DNA of 42,659 bases from the sequence record PZ386954.1. One strand, given 5' to 3'. Positions 3,463-42,659 of this stretch are shown here, one piece after another. Made by a program: the position numbers and the translations under genes. This DNA is from a phage. The notes under the pieces were generated by a model. The model was not told the DNA's origin, ran no database searches, and saw nothing but the letters and a program-made list of their open reading frames with translations. Each line of letters starts with the position of its first letter. Positions within the stretch are counted from its first letter, which is position 1.

Positions 3463-3998
3463 TGACTAACTTTGAAATCTGTATGCGGTTCACCGGGCTG
3501 GCAGAAGGCGGTTACGCCAACCTGCCCGGCGACACCGGAGGGGAAACGAATCATGGAATTAGTGACGCTCGTGATGGAAAGCTGGATGGTAGAGCTTGCG
3601 GTGTCCCTACTGGGCTTGGCGGCACTATTTGTGTGCCTATCCGCGACCTCACCAAAGCGCAAGCCGAAGCAATCTATCGACGGGACTACTACAGCCCCAT
3701 CCGAGGTGACGAGCTTCACCCTGCGATTGCATGTGCCGTGTTCGACTACGGCGTTAACTCAGGTGTCTCCCGTGCGGCGAAAGCTCTACAGCGGGTATGC
3801 GGCGTTGCACAAGACGGGGTTATTGGCCCTGCTACCGTGGCAGCAGCCAAACGTCTGGAACCTCACTCCGCAGCAGCAGCCATCTGTGACCTTCGTATTG
3901 CGTTCCTAAAGGCTTCTACAGCCCCAACAATCGTTCGGTATAGGGATGCCTTGGTAGCTCGTGCAAAACGCTGTAGCGCTTACTGTGCGACGCTGTAG
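3462..3998 (+). CDS. endolysin, glycoside hydrolase family 108-like N-terminal domain plus peptidoglycan-binding C-terminal domain
   Basis: N-terminal FTGLAEGGYANLPGDTGGETNHGI matches the GH108 EGGY...D.GG.T..GI signature; C-terminal ...VAQDGVIGPATVAAAKR resembles PG_binding_3; no signal or SAR segment. Confidence 0.85.
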   Translation: MTNFEICMRFTGLAEGGYANLPGDTGGETNHGISDARDGKLDGRACGVPTGLGGTICVPIRDLTKAQAEAIYRRDYYSPIRGDELHPAIACAVFDYGVNSGVSRAAKALQRVCGVAQDGVIGPATVAAAKRLEPHSAAAAICDLRIAFLKASTAPTIVRYRDALVARAKRCSAYCATL

Positions 3999-4194
3999 GG
4001 GTATCCGAAAGCTGAGGCAATGAACAGGCCGTGGGTGCAATACCCCGGCTTGAAAATTGACTATTTGTACGTGCCCCTCCCTCGACCCAAATGACCGCGC
4101 GTACCCCCATGACGTGTGCGCGGTTTAGCCTCGCGACGTGCGCGGTATTGTCTCGCGTGCGCTGCGCGGCGCGTCGAAAGGATTGCCTGCGTTC

Positions 4195-4600
4195 GGTATA
4201 GCTCGTGCGTGTCGCGTTTCATCGTCTGCCGTGTGGCGTGCTGTGCGCTGTCCTGCTGGCTGTGCTGTGTGCCTGCTGTGTGGGCTATCGGTGGCGGTGT
4301 GGTGCTGTCCTGTGGGGACGCTCTGCGCTGGCTGTGCGGTGCTGTGCGCTGCGCGTGGTCGGGCGGGTATCTGTCTCTTTTCGTGGCGCGGCGTGGTGCT
4401 GTGTGGTGGCGGTGGTGGCGGTGGTGCTGTCCTGTCTGCTGGTCTACTGTCTGCGCCTCCAGCTCTGCGCGTCATGCTCTGCTCCTGTCTGTCACCTGTC
4501 CTACTGCCTTCACGTTCTGCCGTCTGTCAGTCCTACGGCCTGCCATCCGTCATCCGTTCGGCGCTCGCTTGTTTCGGCTGCGCCGCGCTCGCTCTGCGTA
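4195..4600 (+). repeat. non-coding, extremely A-depleted (G/T/C-only) tract with short degenerate repeats (GCTGTGCG, GGTGGCGGTGGTG, CTGTC); probable genome-terminus or terminal-repeat region
   Basis: by direct count only 4 A residues in 4201-4440; overlapping ORFs in all frames here are low-complexity composition artefacts. Confidence 0.7.
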
Positions 4601-4605
4601 TCTAG

Positions 4606-4634
4606 CGATACTATATCACTATAGACACTTTCAT
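4606..4634 (+). promoter_or_regulatory. conserved element CGATACTATATCACTATAGACACTTTCAT; contains TCACTATAG identical to T7 promoter -8..+1; inverted near-identical copy at 25549-25580
   Basis: TCACTATAG at 4616-4624; about 130 bp upstream of the first sigma70 promoter, a T7 phiOL-like position. Confidence 0.45.
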
Positions 4635-4760
4635 TTACTTATTGATTTATAAGGATTTATTTACTGTATTCAATCGGTATTCTATCCAGTGTTAGGATTA
4701 TCTAATCAAACTTTAATCCTAATGATTACAGTAACTTATCACTTTTCTTGAAAATAATAC

Positions 4761-4789
4761 TTGCAAAGGTATTCGGTATTTGCTGTAAT
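4761..4789 (+). promoter_or_regulatory. sigma70-type early promoter P1 (TTGCAA-N17-TGcTGTAAT)
   Basis: -35 TTGCAA 4761-4766, 17-bp spacer, extended -10 TGc + TGTAAT 4784-4789, AT-rich upstream (AAAATAATAC). Confidence 0.7.
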
Positions 4790-4866: not shown

Positions 4867-4895
4867 TTGACAAGGCAAGCTCACTATGCTGTAAT
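4867..4895 (+). promoter_or_regulatory. sigma70-type early promoter P2 (TTGACA-N17-TGcTGTAAT)
   Basis: -35 TTGACA 4867-4872, 17-bp spacer, TGcTGTAAT ending 4895. Confidence 0.75.
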
Positions 4896-5004: not shown

Positions 5005-5033
5005 TTGACAGGATGAAACGAGTATGCTGTAAT
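5005..5033 (+). promoter_or_regulatory. sigma70-type early promoter P3 (TTGACA-N17-TGcTGTAAT)
   Basis: -35 TTGACA 5005-5010, 17-bp spacer, TGTAAT 5028-5033. Confidence 0.75.
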
Positions 5034-5085: not shown

Positions 5086-5114
5086 TTGACAAGCTGAATA
5101 CGATGTGATGTAAT
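5086..5114 (+). promoter_or_regulatory. sigma70-type early promoter P4 (TTGACA-N17-TGaTGTAAT)
   Basis: -35 TTGACA 5086-5091, 17-bp spacer, TGTAAT 5109-5114. Confidence 0.75.
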
Positions 5115-5570
5115 CAGCACCGAGTTGAAAGGATGGAAAGCATCCTGCTCTGAGTGAACGCAAACTGGCCGCGTAGTGTCACGGCTCACTGGGTATCCGC
5201 CGCAGGTTGGAACTGGGTGAGGCATCGCCGAAAGGCAACGGTATCGCAACAATGCTAACGCCGTAGGGGTAGCGCCTGATGCAAGGTAACGGAGAAGCGC
5301 GATAGACGCAGCGCAGTATCAGCACAATACCAAACGTCTTATAAGGCGCGGAGTGAAGCGGGTAGGTAGGCAAGCTGGTAACGGTGAGCCGGACTGCTGG
5401 AGGACTCCTGAGAGTGGATGCAGACAATATCCACGGCGCGAAATGGGCGGGGCGATTTTTCAGGGTAGTGAATCCGACAAGCCAATCAATGCCAACGAGT
5501 GCAGACTGTACGGCGCGTCACAATGGGTTCACTATCCACCTGAAAATAGCCAACAACTGGAGAAATTAAT

Positions 5571-11053: not shown

Positions 11054-11487
11054 AGCCTAAGTACAAAATCGGTGACGAGATTGTAGGTCACAACGACACT
11101 GGCACCCGGTCAGGTAAGCTGGGTATCATCGCATGGGTTAACCCTGACCGCCGAGCATGGGAGCGCAGTGGTGAGACCCGCTACATCGTGAGCTGGATTG
11201 GTGAGCGGCTGAATGCACAGCCGGACATCAGCCACTACAAGTCTGATTGGCTGGAGGATAACACCAGTCTGGTCAGCCGCAAGCCAGAAGACCGGGGCCG
11301 CTACATGTGCTTGGTCGAAGGCAGCAATGCACCGCCGAAGGTTGAGCACATCACTGAACTGGATGCGCGGGAAGAAGCTGAGCGTTTGGCTGAGCGCAAC
11401 GGAGGTACTGTCCGTGTGCTGCAAGTTGTAGCCAGCGTGAAGATGAAGAAGAAGATTCAGTACATACCAGAGTGGGATAACGAATGA
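11047..11487 (+). CDS. hypothetical protein (146 aa)
   Basis: ORF with SD; no motif recognised. Confidence 0.6.
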   Translation: MVKPKYKIGDEIVGHNDTGTRSGKLGIIAWVNPDRRAWERSGETRYIVSWIGERLNAQPDISHYKSDWLEDNTSLVSRKPEDRGRYMCLVEGSNAPPKVEHITELDAREEAERLAERNGGTVRVLQVVASVKMKKKIQYIPEWDNE

Positions 11488-12194
11488 TGAAATCAGTGAG
11501 CAACGACGAGTGGCCGGAGCTGGCGAAGCGTCTGCCAGTAGGACAAAAGCGAAGGACGTTTCACAGTTGCTCGCGGTCATTCAGCAAGACCAACTTTGAG
11601 TATGGCCGTGCGCCGGATTACATCTGGTGCAAGTGCCATCGCTGTGGGTACAGCCGCAAGCATGACCTGACCCATGCAGTGTACGTACCGCCAGCCGAGG
11701 TGCAGGTGAAGGTGCCGACTGATGTTGTGCCTATCACTGAGGTGATTGCCAAGCAGCCCCGCCTTCTCCTGCCTGTGCTGGAGCGCGAGAACCTGATGCC
11801 GCACCTGTCTATCCTGACTGCAAGCCCAACGTATGGCAGGCTGTATCTGCCGGACGACACGGGCAGCTACTGTGGTCTGGATTACACCGGGCGGCAGTTC
11901 ATACCATGGCGCTCACCGCACAAGCATAGCTTGGCGATGAAGGTACACCCGCGAGGTGAGGCTGAGACGAATTGCCTGTGGGTATACGGTGAGGTGGACG
12001 AGTATCTCCAGCAGGTACGTGACGGGGGCAACTGTGCTTTCGTGCCGAACGTGGATGACACGACATTGCAGGCACTGGTAAGTGTGACGCTGGCCTATGG
12101 CTACAACCTCGTGGTCATCTGCCACCACCCAAGTGCTCAACGTATCCGCAGGGAACTGCGTGTGGTAGGGCGAGTGCAGATAGTAGGAGAGTGA
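11484..12194 (+). CDS. zinc-finger DNA replication protein, possibly DNA primase
   Basis: H-x-C...C-x-C-x2-C cluster (HSCSRS...CKCHRCGY) near the N-terminus; position immediately upstream of the helicase; no clear TOPRIM motif. Confidence 0.4.
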   Translation: MMKSVSNDEWPELAKRLPVGQKRRTFHSCSRSFSKTNFEYGRAPDYIWCKCHRCGYSRKHDLTHAVYVPPAEVQVKVPTDVVPITEVIAKQPRLLLPVLERENLMPHLSILTASPTYGRLYLPDDTGSYCGLDYTGRQFIPWRSPHKHSLAMKVHPRGEAETNCLWVYGEVDEYLQQVRDGGNCAFVPNVDDTTLQALVSVTLAYGYNLVVICHHPSAQRIRRELRVVGRVQIVGE

Positions 12195-22852: not shown

Positions 22853-23086
22853 ATGAGTCGTTATCAAAGAGCCATTGAGGACACAGTGGTTGACCGTAAA
22901 GTGTGCGGTGCCTGCATGGGTAGCGGCACCTACCGTGGCATGTTGATTGGTGGGCAGGTAGTCCTGATGGATTGCGAAGCCTGCGGCGGTACGGGTACGA
23001 ATGACCCGGCACTGCAACATTCTGTACTGAGTGACTTGGGCCAGCGCAAACAAGCGCAGCCGGGATATGACGAACCAACGGAGTAA
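22853..23086 (+). CDS. small zinc-finger protein with two CxxCxGxG motifs (DnaJ Cys-rich-like)
   Basis: CGACMGSGT and CEACGGTGT; AGGAGG SD; immediately upstream of RNAP. Confidence 0.6.
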   Translation: MSRYQRAIEDTVVDRKVCGACMGSGTYRGMLIGGQVVLMDCEACGGTGTNDPALQHSVLSDLGQRKQAQPGYDEPTE

Positions 23087-25521
23087 TGATGGACTTACTT
23101 GCAGAGCAGATTCGACTTGAAGAAGAAGCACGAGCCAGACACCGCGAGGGCTGGCTGGATAATATCAAAGAGGCGATGGCCAGTGGCCGGGCCGGGTCGG
23201 TGCCGTTGCTCCAGCGTATGATGGTAGAGGCGTATCCTCTTGTCGAAGCTGCGATGCAAGAAACCCTGAGCGAAACGACCCGTGGATATGGTGCGCAGTA
23301 CCGGACGTACATGCGTGAGATTGGCACCAAAGCGTGTGCCTCTCTCGCACTGAGCATGGCGGTGTCCGGTGCTGCGTCGGAGCAGGCGGTACTGAGTCTG
23401 CTCAAGAGCATGGGCAAGGCACTGATGGCTGAGGTGGTGTACCTCCGGGCGAAGCAGACCGGGCCACAGCAGGCGGCGTACATGGAGCGCGTTAAGCAGG
23501 ACGTGAAGAAGTCTCGCTCGAAGTCAGCGAACCACGTTTACAATAAAGCGCGTGCGTCGGCGGCGAACGTTGGGGTGGAGATTGATGTGCTACCGCAGCG
23601 TGCGCTGATTACCATTGGCAAGTTGATGATGAAGTGCGTCGAGCCAACTGGTCTGGTGTCTACGATTCGCGTCGGCGGCAACCAGCGCCAGCGCGGTACG
23701 GCACACTTCGCACTGCATGAAGATGTGCTGGCTACGATGAATGACTGGCTGGACATGCCGCGTGCCGATGGCATGTGCTGCCCACCGCTGATTATCCCAC
23801 CGAAGCAGATTGCCCCGAATGGTCGCAGTGGTATGTGGCATTCCGATGGGCAGGCAGCGATGTACCGGGTAATGAGTCGCATGAACCACAAAGGGTATCG
23901 TGCATTGAACGTTGACCCGACCCCCGTTATAGAGCCGTGTATGATGCTCAGCAGCGTTCCGTACCGAGTTAACCCAATGGTACTGGAGTTCCTGCGAACG
24001 AACCGTACAGGCGTTATGGGGCTGCCTGTGCCACCTCGTGAGCCTACACTTCCGTTTACCATCCCCGCTGGTGTGAGCTTTGCGCAGTACATCAGCAAGT
24101 TCCCACCAGAGATGCAGCAGCAGATGGATGCCGAAGCTCATGAGTACAAGGTGAAGACTCGCTTGTATTACAATGAGTTGCGTAAGTTCACGTCGCAGAT
24201 GCTGGCGTTGAATGGTGCAGTCAAAGAGGCAGACAGGTATGCGCAGTACGATAGGATTTATCTCCCGACTTACGCCGATACGCGGGGCCGAATTTATTAT
24301 TCTTCGACCCTTAACCCTCAGTCTATCGACGCGGTGCGAGCGCTGCTTGAGCTTGCGGAACCAGTGGCTCTCGGAAGCGAGGGGCTATTCTGGCTCAAGG
24401 TTCATGTTGCGAATTGCTTCGGCTACGACGCAACAGACTTCGACGACCGGGCGGCGTGGACGGACAAAACACTCCCCCGACTACGTGAGGCGTGCCGTCT
24501 TCCAGAGGCATTTGATTCGTTCTGGTCTGAGGCCGATAGCCCTATCTCAGCGTGGGCTGCATCTGTTGAACTCATTCGAGCTATCGACAGCGGAAGTCCT
24601 GAGACTTATCCCTGCCGAGTGGTTACGCAGTGGGATGCTACATGTTCAGGTCTCCAACACCTCAGCGCAATGTTACGCGATGAAGTTGGGGGTGCTGCTG
24701 TCAATCTTATCAATAGCGTGGGGCGAAAGGCAGACATATATCTCAAGACGGCAGCAGCGGCGATGCAGGCTCTTGAAGATAGTGAAGCGCAGTCACCGAC
24801 GCAGATGGGTACGTGGCTTGTTTCAATCGGCATTGTCCGGGCTATGGCCAAGAAGCCAGTGATGACCTACGTGTACGGGGCAACCCGTCACGGTATGGTG
24901 GACTACTACTGCCTGTACCTGCGAGAGAACCGGGTCAAGCTGCCGGACGGCAAGAGCCTACTGGAGTGTGCGCAGTTCATCGCAGAGTTCATGTGGAATG
25001 CAATCCCGCGTGTCGTGCCGAAAGCGGCAGAGCTGATGGCGTGGTTGCAGGCTATCGCGGTGGAGGCGGCGGCTAACGGCGAGTACGTGGAAATCATTGC
25101 GCCGTCAGGGTTGCGGGTGGTTAACCTGTACCAAGCCAGCAAGGAGACGATGCTCAACAACATCAACCTCATGGGTATCCACAGCATTAAGCTGCGCGAG
25201 TATCTGGACAAGCCGGACGGCAGGAAGTGCGCTGCTGCGATTGCTCCTAATTTCGTACACGCTATGGATGCCAGCCACATGATGAAGGTGTTGTGGGAGA
25301 TGTGGAATAACGGGGTGTTCATGGTGTCCATCCATGACTCGTTCGGTGTTGCTGCTGCTCATGCCGGGTTACTTCACAAGGTCATTCGTGAAAAGTTCGT
25401 GCAGATGTATGAGCAACATGACCCAATTCAACAACTTGCTGTGCGATACAATGCTGTTGCACCTGAACGGGGCAATCTGGACATCCAGCTTGTGAAACAA
25501 TCAAGCAAGTTTTTCTGCTGA
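23086..25521 (+). CDS. single-subunit DNA-dependent RNA polymerase (T7 gp1-like)
   Basis: 811 aa; catalytic VSIHDSFGV motif and overall T7-class RNAP layout; located directly before the structural genes as in phiKMV-like phages. Confidence 0.9.
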   Translation: MMDLLAEQIRLEEEARARHREGWLDNIKEAMASGRAGSVPLLQRMMVEAYPLVEAAMQETLSETTRGYGAQYRTYMREIGTKACASLALSMAVSGAASEQAVLSLLKSMGKALMAEVVYLRAKQTGPQQAAYMERVKQDVKKSRSKSANHVYNKARASAANVGVEIDVLPQRALITIGKLMMKCVEPTGLVSTIRVGGNQRQRGTAHFALHEDVLATMNDWLDMPRADGMCCPPLIIPPKQIAPNGRSGMWHSDGQAAMYRVMSRMNHKGYRALNVDPTPVIEPCMMLSSVPYRVNPMVLEFLRTNRTGVMGLPVPPREPTLPFTIPAGVSFAQYISKFPPEMQQQMDAEAHEYKVKTRLYYNELRKFTSQMLALNGAVKEADRYAQYDRIYLPTYADTRGRIYYSSTLNPQSIDAVRALLELAEPVALGSEGLFWLKVHVANCFGYDATDFDDRAAWTDKTLPRLREACRLPEAFDSFWSEADSPISAWAASVELIRAIDSGSPETYPCRVVTQWDATCSGLQHLSAMLRDEVGGAAVNLINSVGRKADIYLKTAAAAMQALEDSEAQSPTQMGTWLVSIGIVRAMAKKPVMTYVYGATRHGMVDYYCLYLRENRVKLPDGKSLLECAQFIAEFMWNAIPRVVPKAAELMAWLQAIAVEAAANGEYVEIIAPSGLRVVNLYQASKETMLNNINLMGIHSIKLREYLDKPDGRKCAAAIAPNFVHAMDASHMMKVLWEMWNNGVFMVSIHDSFGVAAAHAGLLHKVIREKFVQMYEQHDPIQQLAVRYNAVAPERGNLDIQLVKQSSKFFC

Positions 25522-25525
25522 TAAA

Positions 25526-25577
25526 TAGTGATATGTATCATTGACTTATATGAAAGTGTCTATAGTGATATGTATCA
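25526..25577 (+). repeat. 15-bp direct repeat TAGTGATATGTATCA, two copies (25526-25540 and 25563-25577)
   Basis: read directly in the RNAP-to-late-gene intergenic region. Confidence 0.8.
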
Positions 25578-25580
25578 CGC
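25549..25580 (+). promoter_or_regulatory. conserved element TATGAAAGTGTCTATAGTGATATGTATCACGC, candidate phage-RNAP promoter or regulatory box
   Basis: 22-nt perfect inverted match to 4613-4634; first 13 nt ATGAAAGTGTCTA also occur at the start codon of the 25839 gene. Confidence 0.45.
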
Positions 25581-25632
25581 TACCGGTAGCCCCGTCAGTG
25601 GCGGGGGTTACTGCCACTAAGAGAGGATTGTA

Positions 25633-25824
25633 ATGGGTAAAGAATCTCCATTAGAAAGAGTATCGTTCACTAAAGCTCAGTTAGCTCTACTGGAAAAACA
25701 CTTCGGAACTTGGGCGGCAGTAGGTAAGACTGTAACCCCTGATACAAACCTGCCACTGATTAACAGAGAAGCTGGTAAACAAGATGTTATCGACTTCATC
25801 CGTGAACGTGTCATTGGATTGTAG
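25633..25824 (+). CDS. hypothetical small protein (63 aa), first gene of the late region
   Basis: ATG with GAGAGGA SD. Confidence 0.6.
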   Translation: MGKESPLERVSFTKAQLALLEKHFGTWAAVGKTVTPDTNLPLINREAGKQDVIDFIRERVIGL

Positions 25825-25838
25825 GGAGAGTTGTCGGT

Positions 25839-26258
25839 ATGAAAGTGTCTACTATGGGAAATACATCACACACGACAATGCCACTCGACATTCGCCGTGC
25901 TGTGGCCGAGGGCATTCAAGCCGAGCGGCCATGGTCTGACTTATCTCCCGATGTGATTGTTGACAGCATGTACGAGGCCACCGCCTCCGGTTGTGTTGAC
26001 GTTTACATCACTGATGATGACAACAGCCTTATGGCCGTTGCGCACATCGGCAGGTTATTCGATATTCATGTGGGCGAGATGGTGGTCGTTATGGCCTCAT
26101 ACGTCTGGCCCCCGTACAGAAACCGTGGAGTGATGCGTGCCATCCTCCGTGTACTCAAAGACGTGGCCCGTTCAGAGGGTGTGCGTTGGTGCGGTTACTC
26201 CCATATGGTGCGGCCTTACGTTCAGGAGTACCGCTTCATTGATTTGGAGAAACCGTAA
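25839..26258 (+). CDS. hypothetical protein (139 aa), possible minimal GNAT-like acetyltransferase fold
   Basis: YVWPPYRNRGVMRAILRVLKDVARSEGV resembles the GNAT acetyl-CoA-binding R-x-x-G-x-(G/A) region; weak call. Confidence 0.4.
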   Translation: MKVSTMGNTSHTTMPLDIRRAVAEGIQAERPWSDLSPDVIVDSMYEATASGCVDVYITDDDNSLMAVAHIGRLFDIHVGEMVVVMASYVWPPYRNRGVMRAILRVLKDVARSEGVRWCGYSHMVRPYVQEYRFIDLEKP

Positions 26259-39939: not shown

Positions 39940-42320
39940 TGGCGAACAGCTATAATACTTACGTGGCGAACGGTTCACAGACCGCATTCCTCGTCACGTT
40001 CGAGCAGCGCGTGTTCACTGAGATTCAGGTGTACCTCAACTCCGAACTCCAGACGAGCGGATACACCTACAACTCTGTGACCAAACAGATTGTCTTTGAC
40101 ACCGCCCCGCCAATCGGGGTGATTGTCCGACTCCAACGCTACACCTCCGATATTCTGCTTAACAAGTTCGGTCAGGACGCTGCCTTCACGGGCAGCAACC
40201 TCGACGAGAACTTCGAGCAGATTCTGTTTAAGGCTGAGGAAACTCAGGAAGCATGGCTCGCGCCGCTTGACCGTGCCGTCCGTGTTCCGAACTCCGAAGT
40301 CTCCATCAACGCTTTACCGAACGTCGCTGGTCGCCGCAACAAAGCACTGGGCTTTGATAGTAATGGCCAGCCGTTCATGATTCCTCTGGTTGATATTCCT
40401 GACTCCGCGCTGGCTATTGCACTCGCAATGAATGACGGCGGTAAATGGATTGGTACACTGGGCGGCGGTACGTTCCTCGACCGTCAGGATACTGTGTGCC
40501 TGTCAGAGTTCACCAACAACACTGGTTACGCGTCAGTTAGCGCTGCTGTGCAGGCTTGCTTTGACTATGCCGCAGCCAACAATAAAGTAGTGGATGCTCG
40601 CGGCTGGGTAGGCACGCTAAACGCCAACGTCACGATGACAAATATTGAGGTTGTCGGCGGTACGTGGAAAGGCACATCTGACGTGTTTATCGTTAACTCG
40701 CTGTTCCGCAACTTCGAGATTAATAACCTGCGCCTGCGTCCATATGGCGGCGATGTTCGTATCCGCTATGGCTTATTTGATGGTAAGCCCACGCTGAGTA
40801 AAGTGGCGAGCATTATGCTCCAAGCTATCCCAGCCGCTGGCACCATTGAGGTCACAGATTGCGAGTTCCGAAATGGTCTATATGGTATCTTGCAGCAAGG
40901 CACTGGCGAGGTGATGACGCGTGGCCTGTTTCGTAACCTGTCGTTCTATGACATGGGTGGTGATGGGATTGAGCTGAACGTTGTGCAGAAACACTACGAT
41001 GATGGCTGTCTAATTGAGAACATCGTTCTTGAGAACATAGACAGTACAGGTCAGGCACCTATCAATAACTCCAACTGGGGTATCGGTATTGGTGTGGCTG
41101 GTAGTTCTCCATATGGTTTGGATACTCCAGACAGCTATTATGCCAAGAACATTACCATTCGCAACGTCAAGGCACGACGCTGCCGTCAGGTTGTTCACTT
41201 TGAGCAGGTTCGTGATTCGCTTATCGAGAACATCGACGGCGACCCCGACCAGAACGTGTCTAACGGCTCCGGCCTGACTATGGCCACTGTGCTGTGCTAC
41301 GGTGCGCGTCGCGTTACCATCAACGGTGTACGCGGTGAACCAGTGGTCACAGAGGGTACTGACCCGCATAGCATCCGCATTGTGATGCTGGAGTGGGGTA
41401 CTAACGCCGGGATTGGCGCACGCGGGCCATGTCAACACATGACTGTGCGCAACGTGTCATCCCGTAATGGGCGCTTCTATGCTGGCGTAGGCTGTCAGGC
41501 TGTAGGGCTAGACAATACAGCAACGTTCGAGAACATCGACTGCTATAACTTCCGAGTGTTCGGCGTAGCGCGTGAACTTAATCTAGCCAACATCACCTGC
41601 ACAGTGTTTGACTGTATCGGCGATGATTCTGCTGGCGGTACTTCGTCCAACGGGTATCTGGCTGTCGGTCGCACAACGCTCAATATGACCAATGTTAACG
41701 CACTGTCTGAGGACTTGGTAGCCAATCAGGGCTGGAGCCGCTGTGCATACTCGTATGTGTCCAGCGTGGCATCCAACGTGTACGCACGTCCGTATCCCCG
41801 CCAAGGGATTGATGGTGGCATTGGTGTACCTGTGCGGCCCAGCAACCGTGTGTACGTGATGCCGGATGCTGCTGATGTGAATATCACAGACTGGGATGGT
41901 ACTCAGTTCCCTGCCGGACGAGAGTTCGTAGAGGGTGACTTGATTATGCGTACTGATGGTAAGTTCTTTACGGTAACTCGCAGTGGTGCCTATATTCCAG
42001 CTATTGCCGAATATCGGGTCAAAGCTGCGGCAGCAGGTCAGACGTACCTCGCCAGCAATTACCCTATGGATGGTAACAAAGGGTCAATGGTTTGGATTTA
42101 CAGATACATGCTGACGCCCGGCACCCATATCAATATTCCGGGAGCTGGTGCAGGCGGCGGAGTATTACATACCACCATTGCTCGCGGCCCGTACCGTACG
42201 GACGTGAACAACCCTACCAGTGAGATTCGCGTCGGCATTAGTGACCCTATCGTCACAGCTATCCCGGCAGGTACTCAGCTATCCGCCACGTACCCAATCT
42301 CGTTCCGTACACCAACATAA
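39939..42320 (+). CDS. tail fibre / tailspike with T7 gp17-like N-terminal anchor and parallel beta-helix-like C-terminal region (possible polysaccharide depolymerase)
   Basis: 793 aa; N-terminal MANSYNTYVANGSQTAFLVTF...; C-terminal recurring N-I-x-I-x-N-V rungs (ENIVLENID, NITIRNVKA, MTVRNVSS, FENIDCYNF). Confidence 0.75.
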   Translation: MANSYNTYVANGSQTAFLVTFEQRVFTEIQVYLNSELQTSGYTYNSVTKQIVFDTAPPIGVIVRLQRYTSDILLNKFGQDAAFTGSNLDENFEQILFKAEETQEAWLAPLDRAVRVPNSEVSINALPNVAGRRNKALGFDSNGQPFMIPLVDIPDSALAIALAMNDGGKWIGTLGGGTFLDRQDTVCLSEFTNNTGYASVSAAVQACFDYAAANNKVVDARGWVGTLNANVTMTNIEVVGGTWKGTSDVFIVNSLFRNFEINNLRLRPYGGDVRIRYGLFDGKPTLSKVASIMLQAIPAAGTIEVTDCEFRNGLYGILQQGTGEVMTRGLFRNLSFYDMGGDGIELNVVQKHYDDGCLIENIVLENIDSTGQAPINNSNWGIGIGVAGSSPYGLDTPDSYYAKNITIRNVKARRCRQVVHFEQVRDSLIENIDGDPDQNVSNGSGLTMATVLCYGARRVTINGVRGEPVVTEGTDPHSIRIVMLEWGTNAGIGARGPCQHMTVRNVSSRNGRFYAGVGCQAVGLDNTATFENIDCYNFRVFGVARELNLANITCTVFDCIGDDSAGGTSSNGYLAVGRTTLNMTNVNALSEDLVANQGWSRCAYSYVSSVASNVYARPYPRQGIDGGIGVPVRPSNRVYVMPDAADVNITDWDGTQFPAGREFVEGDLIMRTDGKFFTVTRSGAYIPAIAEYRVKAAAAGQTYLASNYPMDGNKGSMVWIYRYMLTPGTHINIPGAGAGGGVLHTTIARGPYRTDVNNPTSEIRVGISDPIVTAIPAGTQLSATYPISFRTPT

Positions 42321-42330
42321 GGAGAACCAC

Positions 42331-42636
42331 ATGGCATCCGTGAATAAGCAGCTCGACGGGCTGCACCGGATGCTGGTGGAGTATCTGTCCGACCGCTTGG
42401 CCGACGCTCGTAGGAAAGATGAACATGGTAATATCATCGAACCTATGGCGGCGGCTGAGCTGTCCGTACTTCGCCAGTTCCTGAAAGACAACGGTATTCA
42501 GGCTGATAAAGACCACGCAGATGACCTGCTGGCGCTGCAAGAGCAACTGAATAACGAAAAGACCGAGGCAGGTCGTAAGGATATTATGACCGCTGCCATT
42601 AACTCAATCGCAGAAGATAGCGGGATGATGCACTAA
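42331..42636 (+). CDS. terminase small subunit (DNA maturase A)
   Basis: 101 aa; GGAGAA SD; immediately upstream of the terminase large subunit across the window junction. Confidence 0.7.
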   Translation: MASVNKQLDGLHRMLVEYLSDRLADARRKDEHGNIIEPMAAAELSVLRQFLKDNGIQADKDHADDLLALQEQLNNEKTEAGRKDIMTAAINSIAEDSGMMH

Positions 42637-42659
42637 TGGATTTACAACGCCGCATGGTG

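Follow-up and report, generated by a model that had tools for sequence, protein, structure and literature searches.

In the phage genome record PZ386954.1, a stretch of 42,659 nucleotides read on one strand and hereafter called the window, the lysis genes and the early promoters are separated by a tract from which adenine is almost absent on the top strand. We interpret this tract, at a probability of about 90%, as a single collapsed copy of the direct terminal repeat together with an untranscribed left-end leader of about 240 bp reaching to position 4600, an arrangement corresponding to the concatemer junction of the T7 supergroup. The concatemer-junction region of a T7-supergroup phage of the genus Bonnellvirus is probably also the best explanation of the region as a whole. 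Physical ends, a terminal repeat and a concatemer junction had been considered in a preliminary description of the sequence, and are supported by the alignment with the repeat annotated in Bonnellvirus J8-65 and by the hallmarks of left ends and right boundaries. The element is of a well-known kind, its J8-65 homologue being already annotated. In the literature searched there appears to be no description of a single base being kept almost wholly off one strand in an actively maintained way, nor of the occurrence of this trait among the phiKMV-like phages.

Genomic setting and predicted termini

In megablast comparisons the window shows, across this region, an identity of 84-91% with aldrigsur, altidsur, LF82-23 and other members of Bonnellvirus, and by its sequence the window is a Bonnellvirus genome (Autographiviridae, J8-65-like). 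The gene for the large terminase (TerL) is split by the window origin: positions 42636-42659 join 1-1737, so that the window copy begins eight codons (ATGGATTTACAACGCCGCATGGTG) before the end and resumes at position 1, the protein of the relatives having 586 aa. The window is thus a circularly closed assembly with an arbitrary origin, and the order of the record is a circular permutation, not the virion order. No 14-mer of 4082-4600 was found a second time within the window, and any terminal repeat is therefore held there once, as a collapsed copy. The tract at 4082-4600 lies between the stop codon of the endolysin gene (3998) and the early promoters (from 4761), and all long open reading frames are on the + strand. 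This is the position expected of a T7-supergroup terminal repeat, in which the last late genes (terminase and lysis) are followed by the repeat and then by host-type early promoters, in one direction of transcription. The placement between a lysis cassette and early promoters, already proposed in the preliminary description, agrees with the endolysin stop at 3998 and four sigma-70 promoters from 4761 onwards. The RNA polymerase gene extends over 23086-25521, late in the window genome, as in phiKMV.

Escherichia phage J8-65 (NC_025445), the type species of Bonnellvirus, is deposited as a linear genome with a repeat_region of 259 bp at 1-259 and 40723-40981, with which the tract aligns; among the relatives it is the only one deposited with both repeat copies. 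The left end of J8-65, TCGACCC, aligns with window position 4082, which places the predicted left end there. Across this point the right-end flank and left end of J8-65 read ...GGGCCTCCC/TCGACCCGAAGG and those of the window ...GCCCCTCCC/TCGACCCAAATG (here and below a stroke marks the terminus). The right end of the repeat falls at 4360 when the J8-65 annotation is followed and at 4368 according to the rule derived from T7, SP6 and JG068, in which the repeat ends at ATCTGT. The record ends of usur, glasur and BHUENT7 are uninformative on the termini, as they are arbitrary breaks in or near the tract, in BHUENT7 with an assembly overlap. The features of the predicted junction are as follows.

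4044-4081, + strand: unique flank of the right end, with the invariant blocks CCCGGCTTGAAAATTG (4044-4059) and CCTCCC (4076-4081), the latter abutting the predicted cleavage site
4082 to 4360-4368, + strand: predicted direct terminal repeat of 279-287 bp, left end 5'-TCGACCCAAATGACC, placed by homology
4104-4110, + strand: CCCCCAT box, 23 nt from the predicted left end, a hallmark of T7-supergroup left ends
4116-4157, + strand: two tandem copies of a 22-nt unit (consensus GTGCGCGGTATAGCCTCGCGAC) in the left part of the repeat, where A is less depleted (14% A), conserved in the non-J8-65 clade
4201-4440, + strand: G/T-rich core (1-2% A), which takes in the repeat's right 60% and continues over the leader's first 80 nt, with GGTGCTGT, GCTGTGCG and GTGGTGGCG units; relatives differ here by indels
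4368-4383, + strand: ATCTGT-type box TATCTGTCTCTTTTCG where the repeat ends on the right; formation of the right end at the concatemer junction is predicted here
4441-4600, + strand: portion of the leader rich in C and T (C 39%, T 30%, G 24%, A 7%), with CTGTC at high density, at the position of the left short-repeat array of T7

Both boundaries carry marks that recur in the T7 supergroup. The seven phages used for comparison (T7, SP6, JG068, LKA1, LIMElight, phiKMV and J8-65) all have a CCCC(C)(A/G)T box at a distance of 22-33 nt from the left end, and six of the seven start with 5'-TC, the LIMElight record starting with CC; the window, with TCGACCC at 4082 followed by its CCCCCAT box, shows the same combination. 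The T7 repeat ends at 160, directly before ATCTGTT, while the boundaries of SP6 (174) and JG068 (216) lie one base inside the motif (A/TCTGT), and LKA1, LIMElight and phiKMV have a TGCCTCTTTT-like box at the right boundary of the repeat. The window has an ATCTGT box with a pyrimidine run at this place, TATCTGTCTCTTTT (TATCTGTC) at 4368; the 14-mer of this box is unique in the window and invariant in the genus except for a G>A change in the J8-65 clade. Annotated or published repeat lengths are 160 bp for T7, 216 for JG068, 298 for LKA1, 277 for LIMElight and 414 for phiKMV, and that of SP6 we take to be 174. Comparison with the ends of related genomes, which had been suggested along with the terminal reading, thus matches the tract to the J8-65 repeat and finds its hallmarks in common with T7, SP6, JG068, LKA1, LIMElight and phiKMV. 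The 216-bp repeat of JG068 was determined by run-off sequencing (PMC3765740).

The layout is kept in 15 Bonnellvirus genomes, where, counted from the left end, a class II-like box lies at 240-286, CTTTCAT at 495-576 and the first promoter at 628-720. In a 14-genome alignment the invariant blocks are CCCGGCTTGAAAATTG, CCTCCC/TCGAC, GGACGC..CTGCGCTGG within the repeat, GGGTATCTGTCTCTTTT just beyond its right boundary, and ACTTTCAT. The blocks of the flank 4044-4081, which are invariant in 14 of the 14 aligned Bonnellvirus sequences, can be made out as well in LIMEzero, a member of the sister genus (CCTAAAAATTGAATG...GGGCCTCCC/TCGAC), and the flank is a candidate packaging or cleavage recognition sequence.

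The box at 4368 resembles a known transcription signal. The class II pause and termination signal of T7 RNA polymerase reads H-ATCTGTT in the non-template strand and has a U run downstream for termination, and one natural copy is situated close to the right-hand end of the T7 concatemer junction (10.1101/2021.01.11.426313; 10.64898/2026.02.12.705533). The window box, T-ATCTGTC-TCTTTT, agrees with six of the seven core positions and has the correct preceding base H and a T run; the phage's own polymerase differs from that of T7, and recognition of the box by this polymerase is plausible by analogy.

A few points weigh against this identification of the junction. The box ATCTGTC is a match at six of seven positions and T7 polymerase tolerates no change of the core; the J8-65 repeat is an unpublished GenBank annotation that ends 12 nt before the ATCTAT box; and the termini of the window are placed by homology, not from reads.

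The similarity to known left ends extends beyond the boundaries. In T7 the left end consists of the 160-bp repetition, the class II signal, the left short repeats (SRL), phiOL and the promoters A1-A3, and the window has the same order: repeat, ATCTGT box at the right boundary, a short-repeat array of ~180-240 bp, a phage-promoter-like element ~245 bp after the repeat, AT-rich DNA and tandem host promoters. Both also have the 5'-TC start, a CCCCCAT box ~25 nt in, and a repeat whose top strand is A-poor relative to the genome. They differ in that the T7 repeat has 19% A and its CCTAAAG array is A-rich, whereas the window has ~1-7% A in repeat and array, and in that the box is ATCTGTT in T7 and ATCTGTC followed by a T run in the window. 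The J8-65 repeat is homologous and agrees in its boundary blocks, layout and A-depletion (7% A), although identity inside the tract is ~75% with many indels, the box is ATCTAT and the window repeat is ~20-28 bp longer. The phiKMV-like phages (phiKMV with a repeat of 414 bp, LKA1 298, LIMElight 277, and LIMEzero) share with the window an A-less top strand from the left end to the first early promoter, the TGCCTCTTTT-like pyrimidine box after the repeat, and short repeats that are particular to each lineage. By contrast, they have no detectable sequence similarity to the window, their repeats are C-rich instead of G-rich, and their hosts are others.

Exclusion of adenine and its maintenance

Direct counting of the top strand over 4201-4440 gives A=4, C=57, G=104 and T=75 in 240 nt; the recount is identical to the four A residues reported in the preliminary description, and an ordinary A content, which would have contradicted it, is not found. 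For 4195-4600 there are 17 A in 406 nt. Over the 42,659 nt the number of A per 240-nt segment has a mean of 54.7 (standard deviation 8.2) and a minimum outside the tract of 33, and the sliding-window check that had been advised thus finds an A minimum unmatched elsewhere in the window. The corresponding minima of the other bases over the whole window are C 40, G 35 and T 28, none of them comparable to the A hole, and AT skew falls to -0.85 at the tract. The maximal-scoring A-poor run extends over ~4113-4599 with 4.7% A; the depletion previously noted for a tract of about 400 bp at 4195-4600 is therefore real, whereas its extent was set too narrowly. At position 4600 the A content steps from ~5% to ~30% within 10 nt.

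All 13 relatives examined have a segment of 330-420 nt with 4-6% A at the same place, yet the interior of the tract is the fastest-evolving part of the region, with 148 of 268 ungapped columns variable and units of 9-30 nt gained or lost. Differences involving A account for 18% of the pairwise differences in the tract versus 56% and 55% in the two flanks. C<->T differences make up 36% and A<->G differences 9% in the tract, while in the flanks both are about equal. In low-complexity DNA such figures, being drawn from an alignment, are approximate; no alignment enters into the composition result. The remaining A residues of the core (4221, 4287, 4318 and 4369) are within the conserved TTTCA and GGGACGC blocks, a TATCGG unit and the invariant GGGTATCTG box. 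Because more than half of the alignable columns vary and few of the differences involve A, the sequence comparison indicates that the exclusion of A is actively maintained, not passively inherited.

Searches for distant homologues of the tract with blastn returned matches in Bonnellvirus only. A low A content is nevertheless seen at the left ends of the phiKMV-like phages, with 4-11% A over the first ~700 nt in phiKMV, 2-15% over the first ~500 nt in LKA1, 6-13% over 100-600 in LIMEzero and 7-19% in LIMElight, and in all four the A-poor tract stops just before the first annotated host promoter. The repeats of T7, SP6 and JG068 are mildly A-poor (14-19%) and their post-repeat arrays contain A. 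We further surveyed 65 IMG/VR loci found by large-terminase alignment (39-99% identity) for base-depleted segments of at least 250 nt. An A-less segment was present in 22 of the 65, 1.4-4.2 kb downstream of the terminase gene or at a contig end; T-, G- and C-less segments were found in 3, 2 and 2 loci, located elsewhere and far less extreme. Two IMG/VR contigs from AT-rich relatives (L078 and L093, 41% GC) have segments of 300-440 nt nearly without G and without C, not A, and AT-rich members of the wider group may follow a different terminal composition rule.

It is possible, at somewhat less than even odds, that the exclusion of A from the rightward strand between the left terminus and the first promoter is a selected, strand-specific and so far undescribed design rule of the phiKMV-like Autographiviridae. 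Two mechanisms are possible for such a rule, namely immunity of the first-injected DNA to every adenine-methylation-based restriction system, or the need of a single-stranded or transcribed intermediate in concatemer processing; under it the Bonnellviruses would stand at the extreme. Neither the repeat nor its composition is mentioned in the papers on J8-65, Bonnellvirus and Kc261, and a search for literature on adenine-poor terminal repeats or the short repeats of T7 (SRL and SRR) found none, most older subscription papers lying outside that search.

Proposed roles of the repeat and the leader

By homology with T7, the repeat would be present at both ends of the virion DNA and would let replicated genomes join into concatemers with one repeat per junction; the predicted virion genome is ~42.94 kb. 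During packaging the junction would be cut at CCTCCC/TCGACCC to yield the left end and beside the TATCTGTCTCTTTT box to yield the right end, with duplication of the repeat. The TATCTGTCTCTTTT box would be the counterpart of the class II pause signal, at which the phage RNA polymerase stalls and the junction is marked for processing. Upon infection the DNA of the left end would enter first, before the four host promoters that drive entry of the remaining genome. In T7, work by Dunn and Studier in 1983, by Chung, Nardone and Hinkle in 1990 and by Zhang and Studier in 2004 is said to have established that the repeat allows concatemer formation, that each junction holds one repeat, which is duplicated during packaging, that polymerase pausing at the junction is needed for processing, and that the left end enters the cell first, ahead of the host promoters; PMC5000459 and PMC4925675 cite these works.

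For the exclusion of A itself we tentatively propose an inert leader, in which A is excluded so that the first-injected DNA stays free of recognition sites, a reading that may well be wrong. Characterised Type I enzymes methylate one adenine on each strand. Because Type I targets need adenine on each strand, a leader with adenine on one strand only could hold no Type I target. The same leader would contain, on either strand, no palindromic site bearing A or T, no -10 hexamer, no phage promoter, and no ATG start or stop codon. Such a non-coding leader would remain inert while the anti-restriction SAMase is still to be made from the first gene; in J8-65 and altidsur the first gene is a SAMase, and protection must consequently wait for its expression.

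Related observations come from DNA that enters a cell while anti-restriction functions are awaited, which is where restriction motifs matter: in Murciavirus, another genus of Autographiviridae, a Type I motif (an example of such motifs being Mme2I, AGAGN6GTG/CACN6CTCT) confers sensitivity only in the first-injected region, and the first-step-transfer region of T5 and the leading regions of plasmids are discussed alongside the Murciavirus leading region (PMC12455610). The window leader is comparable as first-entering DNA and cannot hold a Type I target. It differs in that particular motifs are lost in the Murciavirus, T5 and plasmid cases, whereas in the window a whole base is off one strand and the anti-restriction role is one that we infer.

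Restriction sites are avoided throughout the genome. With 4000-4700 left aside, 36 of the 64 six-base palindromes are absent from the window; all eight GC-only ones are missing (0 versus 93.5 expected) and those containing A/T number 207 versus 498 expected, while GATC occurs once (~150 expected), CCWGG not at all (~110 expected) and CTAG five times (37 expected). Site avoidance in J8-65 is alike, with 38 of 64 six-base palindromes absent, no GATC and one CCWGG. The A-less core contains no six-base palindrome. This genome-wide avoidance, the Type I experiments in Murciavirus and the SAMase as first gene would all give weight to the inert-leader reading.

Several observations count against an inert leader. 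It gives no reason for the removal, in every lineage, of A and never of T. Of the DNA that has to enter before the SAMase is made, the leader accounts for about a quarter only, and a 470-bp untranslated region at 5115-5570 is not A-less. The tract is rich in GCGC (16 copies) and CGCG (13 copies), and T7, SP6 and JG068 carry A-containing arrays at the same place. The enrichment of CTGTC and GGTGCTGT hints at a positive role beyond mere inertness.

Sites of the Type III enzyme EcoP15I (CAGCAG) show an orientation bias of their own. In the first 3.8 kb from the predicted left end (4082 to ~7945) all eight are on the bottom strand and the first top-strand site lies 3864 nt from the end, compared with 53 top-strand and 77 bottom-strand sites genome-wide (P ~0.015, which may be chance). 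Type III enzymes need inversely oriented sites.

Short repeats and rejected readings

The short G/T/C repeats noticed in the preliminary description, CTGTC among them, are present and exceed what composition predicts. CTGT occurs 18 times in the tract against 4.4 +/- 1.9 in shuffled sequences, CTGTC 10 times against 1.4 expected from composition, TGCTGT seven times against 0.4 and GGTGCTGT four times against 0.1. Tandem Repeats Finder and a repeat search located tandem arrays at 4116-4157, 4240-4278, 4320-4352 and 4403-4426; no clear period-3 or other periodicity was detected in the tract. The window thus has, with its 10 CTGTC and its GGTGCTGT and GTGGTGGCG units, the short-repeat array that follows the repeat on the left-end side in the T7 supergroup. 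To our knowledge the function of the short-repeat arrays beside T7-type terminal repeats has stood unexplained since 1983.

The tract is rejected as protein-coding sequence. All three frames of the + strand and one of the - strand are open only because stop codons need A (top) or T (bottom); the indels that separate close relatives mostly have lengths not divisible by three, the products consist largely of the ten amino acids available to A-free codons, and a Pfam search of the tract's open reading frames gave no match, all in line with the earlier judgement that no credible frame exists here. 'Hypothetical protein' genes have been annotated in GenBank within the A-less tract of relatives, namely L009 at 441-980 (Kc261), L011 at 368-883 (forsur), L010 at 492-1040 (HHU8), L012 at 332-898 (ROV85) and L014 at 1720-2127 (Lidtsur), and these are artefacts of stop-free sequence.

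Other candidates were likewise rejected. A structured RNA of a known family is ruled out by the lack of any Rfam match in the window. General avoidance of palindromes inside the tract does not hold, as GCGC and CGCG are abundant and the lack of GC-only six-mers in the core (0 versus ~3 expected) is not significant. A cluster of Chi (RecBCD) sites, GCTGGTGG, is not found in the tract, which has no exact match and one match with one mismatch versus 1.6 expected. In the window as a whole exact Chi sites occur at 1102, 2370, 15496, 28973, 30913, 31757, 35126 and 42372, that is, eight on the + strand and none on the - strand versus ~0.65 expected per strand; 50 other 8-mers are at least as frequent, and codon usage (CTG GTG) may explain the count.

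Elements downstream of the tract

Beyond the step in A content the following elements were recognised.

4605-4634, strand not assigned: promoter-like element GCGATACTATATCACTATAGACACTTTCAT, which ends the tract; its palindromic CTATAG core allows either orientation
4635-4760, strand not assigned: AT-rich block (~29% GC) between the leader and the first early promoter
4761-4789, 4867-4895, 5005-5033 and 5086-5114, + strand: four host-type early promoters, TTGACA-N17-TGTAAT, read from the sequence and highly conserved in the genus

The element at 4605-4634 includes TCACTATAG, which equals positions -8 to +1 of the T7 promoter. An identical 22-mer, ATATCACTATAGACACTTTCAT, is located at 4613-4634 (+) and at 25550-25571 (-), the latter just after the RNA polymerase gene, with a partial copy at 25839-25851 (+); a promoter for a single-subunit phage RNA polymerase (T7 phiOL-type) would be a conserved sequence of ~23 bp with a TATA-G start, recurring ahead of phage-transcribed genes and co-varying with the polymerase, and against this there are two full copies only, in opposite orientation and with a palindromic core. 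In J8-65 both places have a co-varying version, ACAGTTACTTTCAT, which suggests a single factor that reads the two. Also in the intergenic region that follows the RNA polymerase gene (25522-25636), TAGTGATATGTATCA occurs twice and there is a GC-rich hairpin, GCCCCGTCAGTGGCGGGG; these lie upstream of a small gene starting at ~25634. The replication element that the preliminary description had also considered would, if anywhere, be the promoter-like element and AT-rich block at 4605-4760. The four early promoters correspond to A1-A3 of T7, and transcribed DNA begins with them; they were missed by a consensus promoter scanner, their -10 hexamer having G at position 2.

Alternative explanations of the exclusion

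Selection may have acted on single strands instead of on recognition sites. Strands that lack A, like their T-lacking complements, form little self-structure, which could speed the annealing or strand invasion of exposed 3' strands when concatemers are built; we regard this as doubtful. The predicted folding energy of single-stranded DNA over 4201-4440 is -0.122 (top) and -0.082 (bottom) kcal/mol/nt, against ~-0.20 expected at that GC content from a genome regression (residual standard deviation 0.02) and from synthetic symmetric sequences (standard deviation 0.03), and there are almost no inverted repeats inside the tract; low self-structure, however, follows automatically from skewed composition and is not independent evidence. 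The top strands are G+T-rich (55-65%) in all eight terminal repeats examined, and at the right terminus it is the G/T-rich strand that has the 3' end, in the manner of telomeres and of the GT-rich sequences that recombinases prefer. RecA prefers GT-rich DNA, but T7-type recombination is independent of RecA; the argument would hold for both strand orientations alike; C, at 26-39%, shows no depletion, so that G-C hairpins are still possible; and the A-less tract continues 240 bp beyond the repeat into unique DNA that has no annealing partner.

Alternatively, the lack of A could be a by-product of the amplification by slippage of A-free units, with CTGT(C), the class II core, and GGTGCTGT as candidates, giving an array of degenerate binding or pause sites that might be read by the phage RNA polymerase, by the small subunit of the terminase or by an ejection protein. 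The excess over composition (fourfold for CTGT, sevenfold for CTGTC, 4 versus 0.1 for GGTGCTGT), indels of 9-30 nt that correspond to the size of the repeat units, and lineage-specific short-repeat arrays at this place in T7, SP6, JG068, LKA1, phiKMV and LIMElight are in its favour. Single copies are conserved in neither position nor number across the genus, though, and substitutions outside the motifs avoid A too. The units of phiKMV (CCTGG/TGCCTC), LKA1 (CCCTGGT) and LIMEzero are unrelated and yet all are A-less, which a by-product does not predict, and this explanation likewise seems rather doubtful to us.

An unlikely possibility is a device of the replication end. The bottom strand would be the lagging-strand template and, lacking T, would offer no site to primases that start with ATP, so that the last ~500 nt would stay as a single-stranded 3' tail available for concatemers, with the promoter-like element and AT-rich block acting as an origin of the T7 phiOL type. 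This fits an asymmetry that is specific to the strand and to the left end, A being lacking in the unique flank on the right side of the repeat but not in the flank on its left, as well as the spacing of the 4605-4634 element, ~245 bp after the repeat end and followed by AT-rich DNA (in T7, phiOL at 405 versus a repeat end at 160). The phage has primase and helicase genes of its own, the primase gene lying at 11484-12194, and the top strand has 37 CTG versus 16 expected, with GTC also present. On the other hand, the repeat of T7 itself carries a primase site on that strand (top-strand GACCC, read from the T7 sequence), and the direction of the promoter-like element is ambiguous owing to its palindromic core.

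A mutational origin of the loss is quite unlikely. Repeated single-strandedness of the terminal DNA might have led to deamination (A>G, C>T) on one strand until A was lost, and the prevalence of C<->T differences, the rarity of A<->G differences and the richness of the core in G and T agree with this. The boundaries, however, are sharp, step-like and coincident with conserved elements, 4441-4600 is rich in C (39%), which is the opposite of C>T pressure, and A persists wherever a block is invariant. Moreover, the exposed 3' strand at the left end is the bottom one, in which deamination of C would add A to the top strand of the leader. Least probable of all, and in our view very improbable, is a non-B structure, a G-quadruplex or i-motif formed by the GG runs, which the preliminary description had entertained. 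Two weak two-tetrad motifs (4282-4302 and 4405-4424) and a mean G4Hunter score of 0.44 over 4201-4440, versus 0.07 genome-wide, are all that resemble it. By the standard definitions (four runs of three or more G separated by short loops, or a G4Hunter score that reaches 1.2) the tract is rejected as a G-quadruplex: no canonical G3+ motif exists in the window, the G4Hunter maximum of the tract is 1.12, below the usual 1.2, and 95 windows elsewhere in the genome exceed 1.2. The phiKMV and LKA1 repeats are C-rich, not G-rich, and yet equally A-less.

Implications

The predicted genome ends allow the re-orientation of many Bonnellvirus records that are deposited with arbitrary origins, and the spurious 'hypothetical protein' calls inside the tract can be removed. 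For the short-repeat arrays of T7-type phages, the conserved exclusion of one base provides a sharp and testable handle. If the anti-restriction reading is true, the leader would represent a sequence-independent evasion of Type I systems that is useful in the design of therapeutic phages; if instead the mechanistic reading is true, the exclusion would point to a strand-specific intermediate in concatemer processing.

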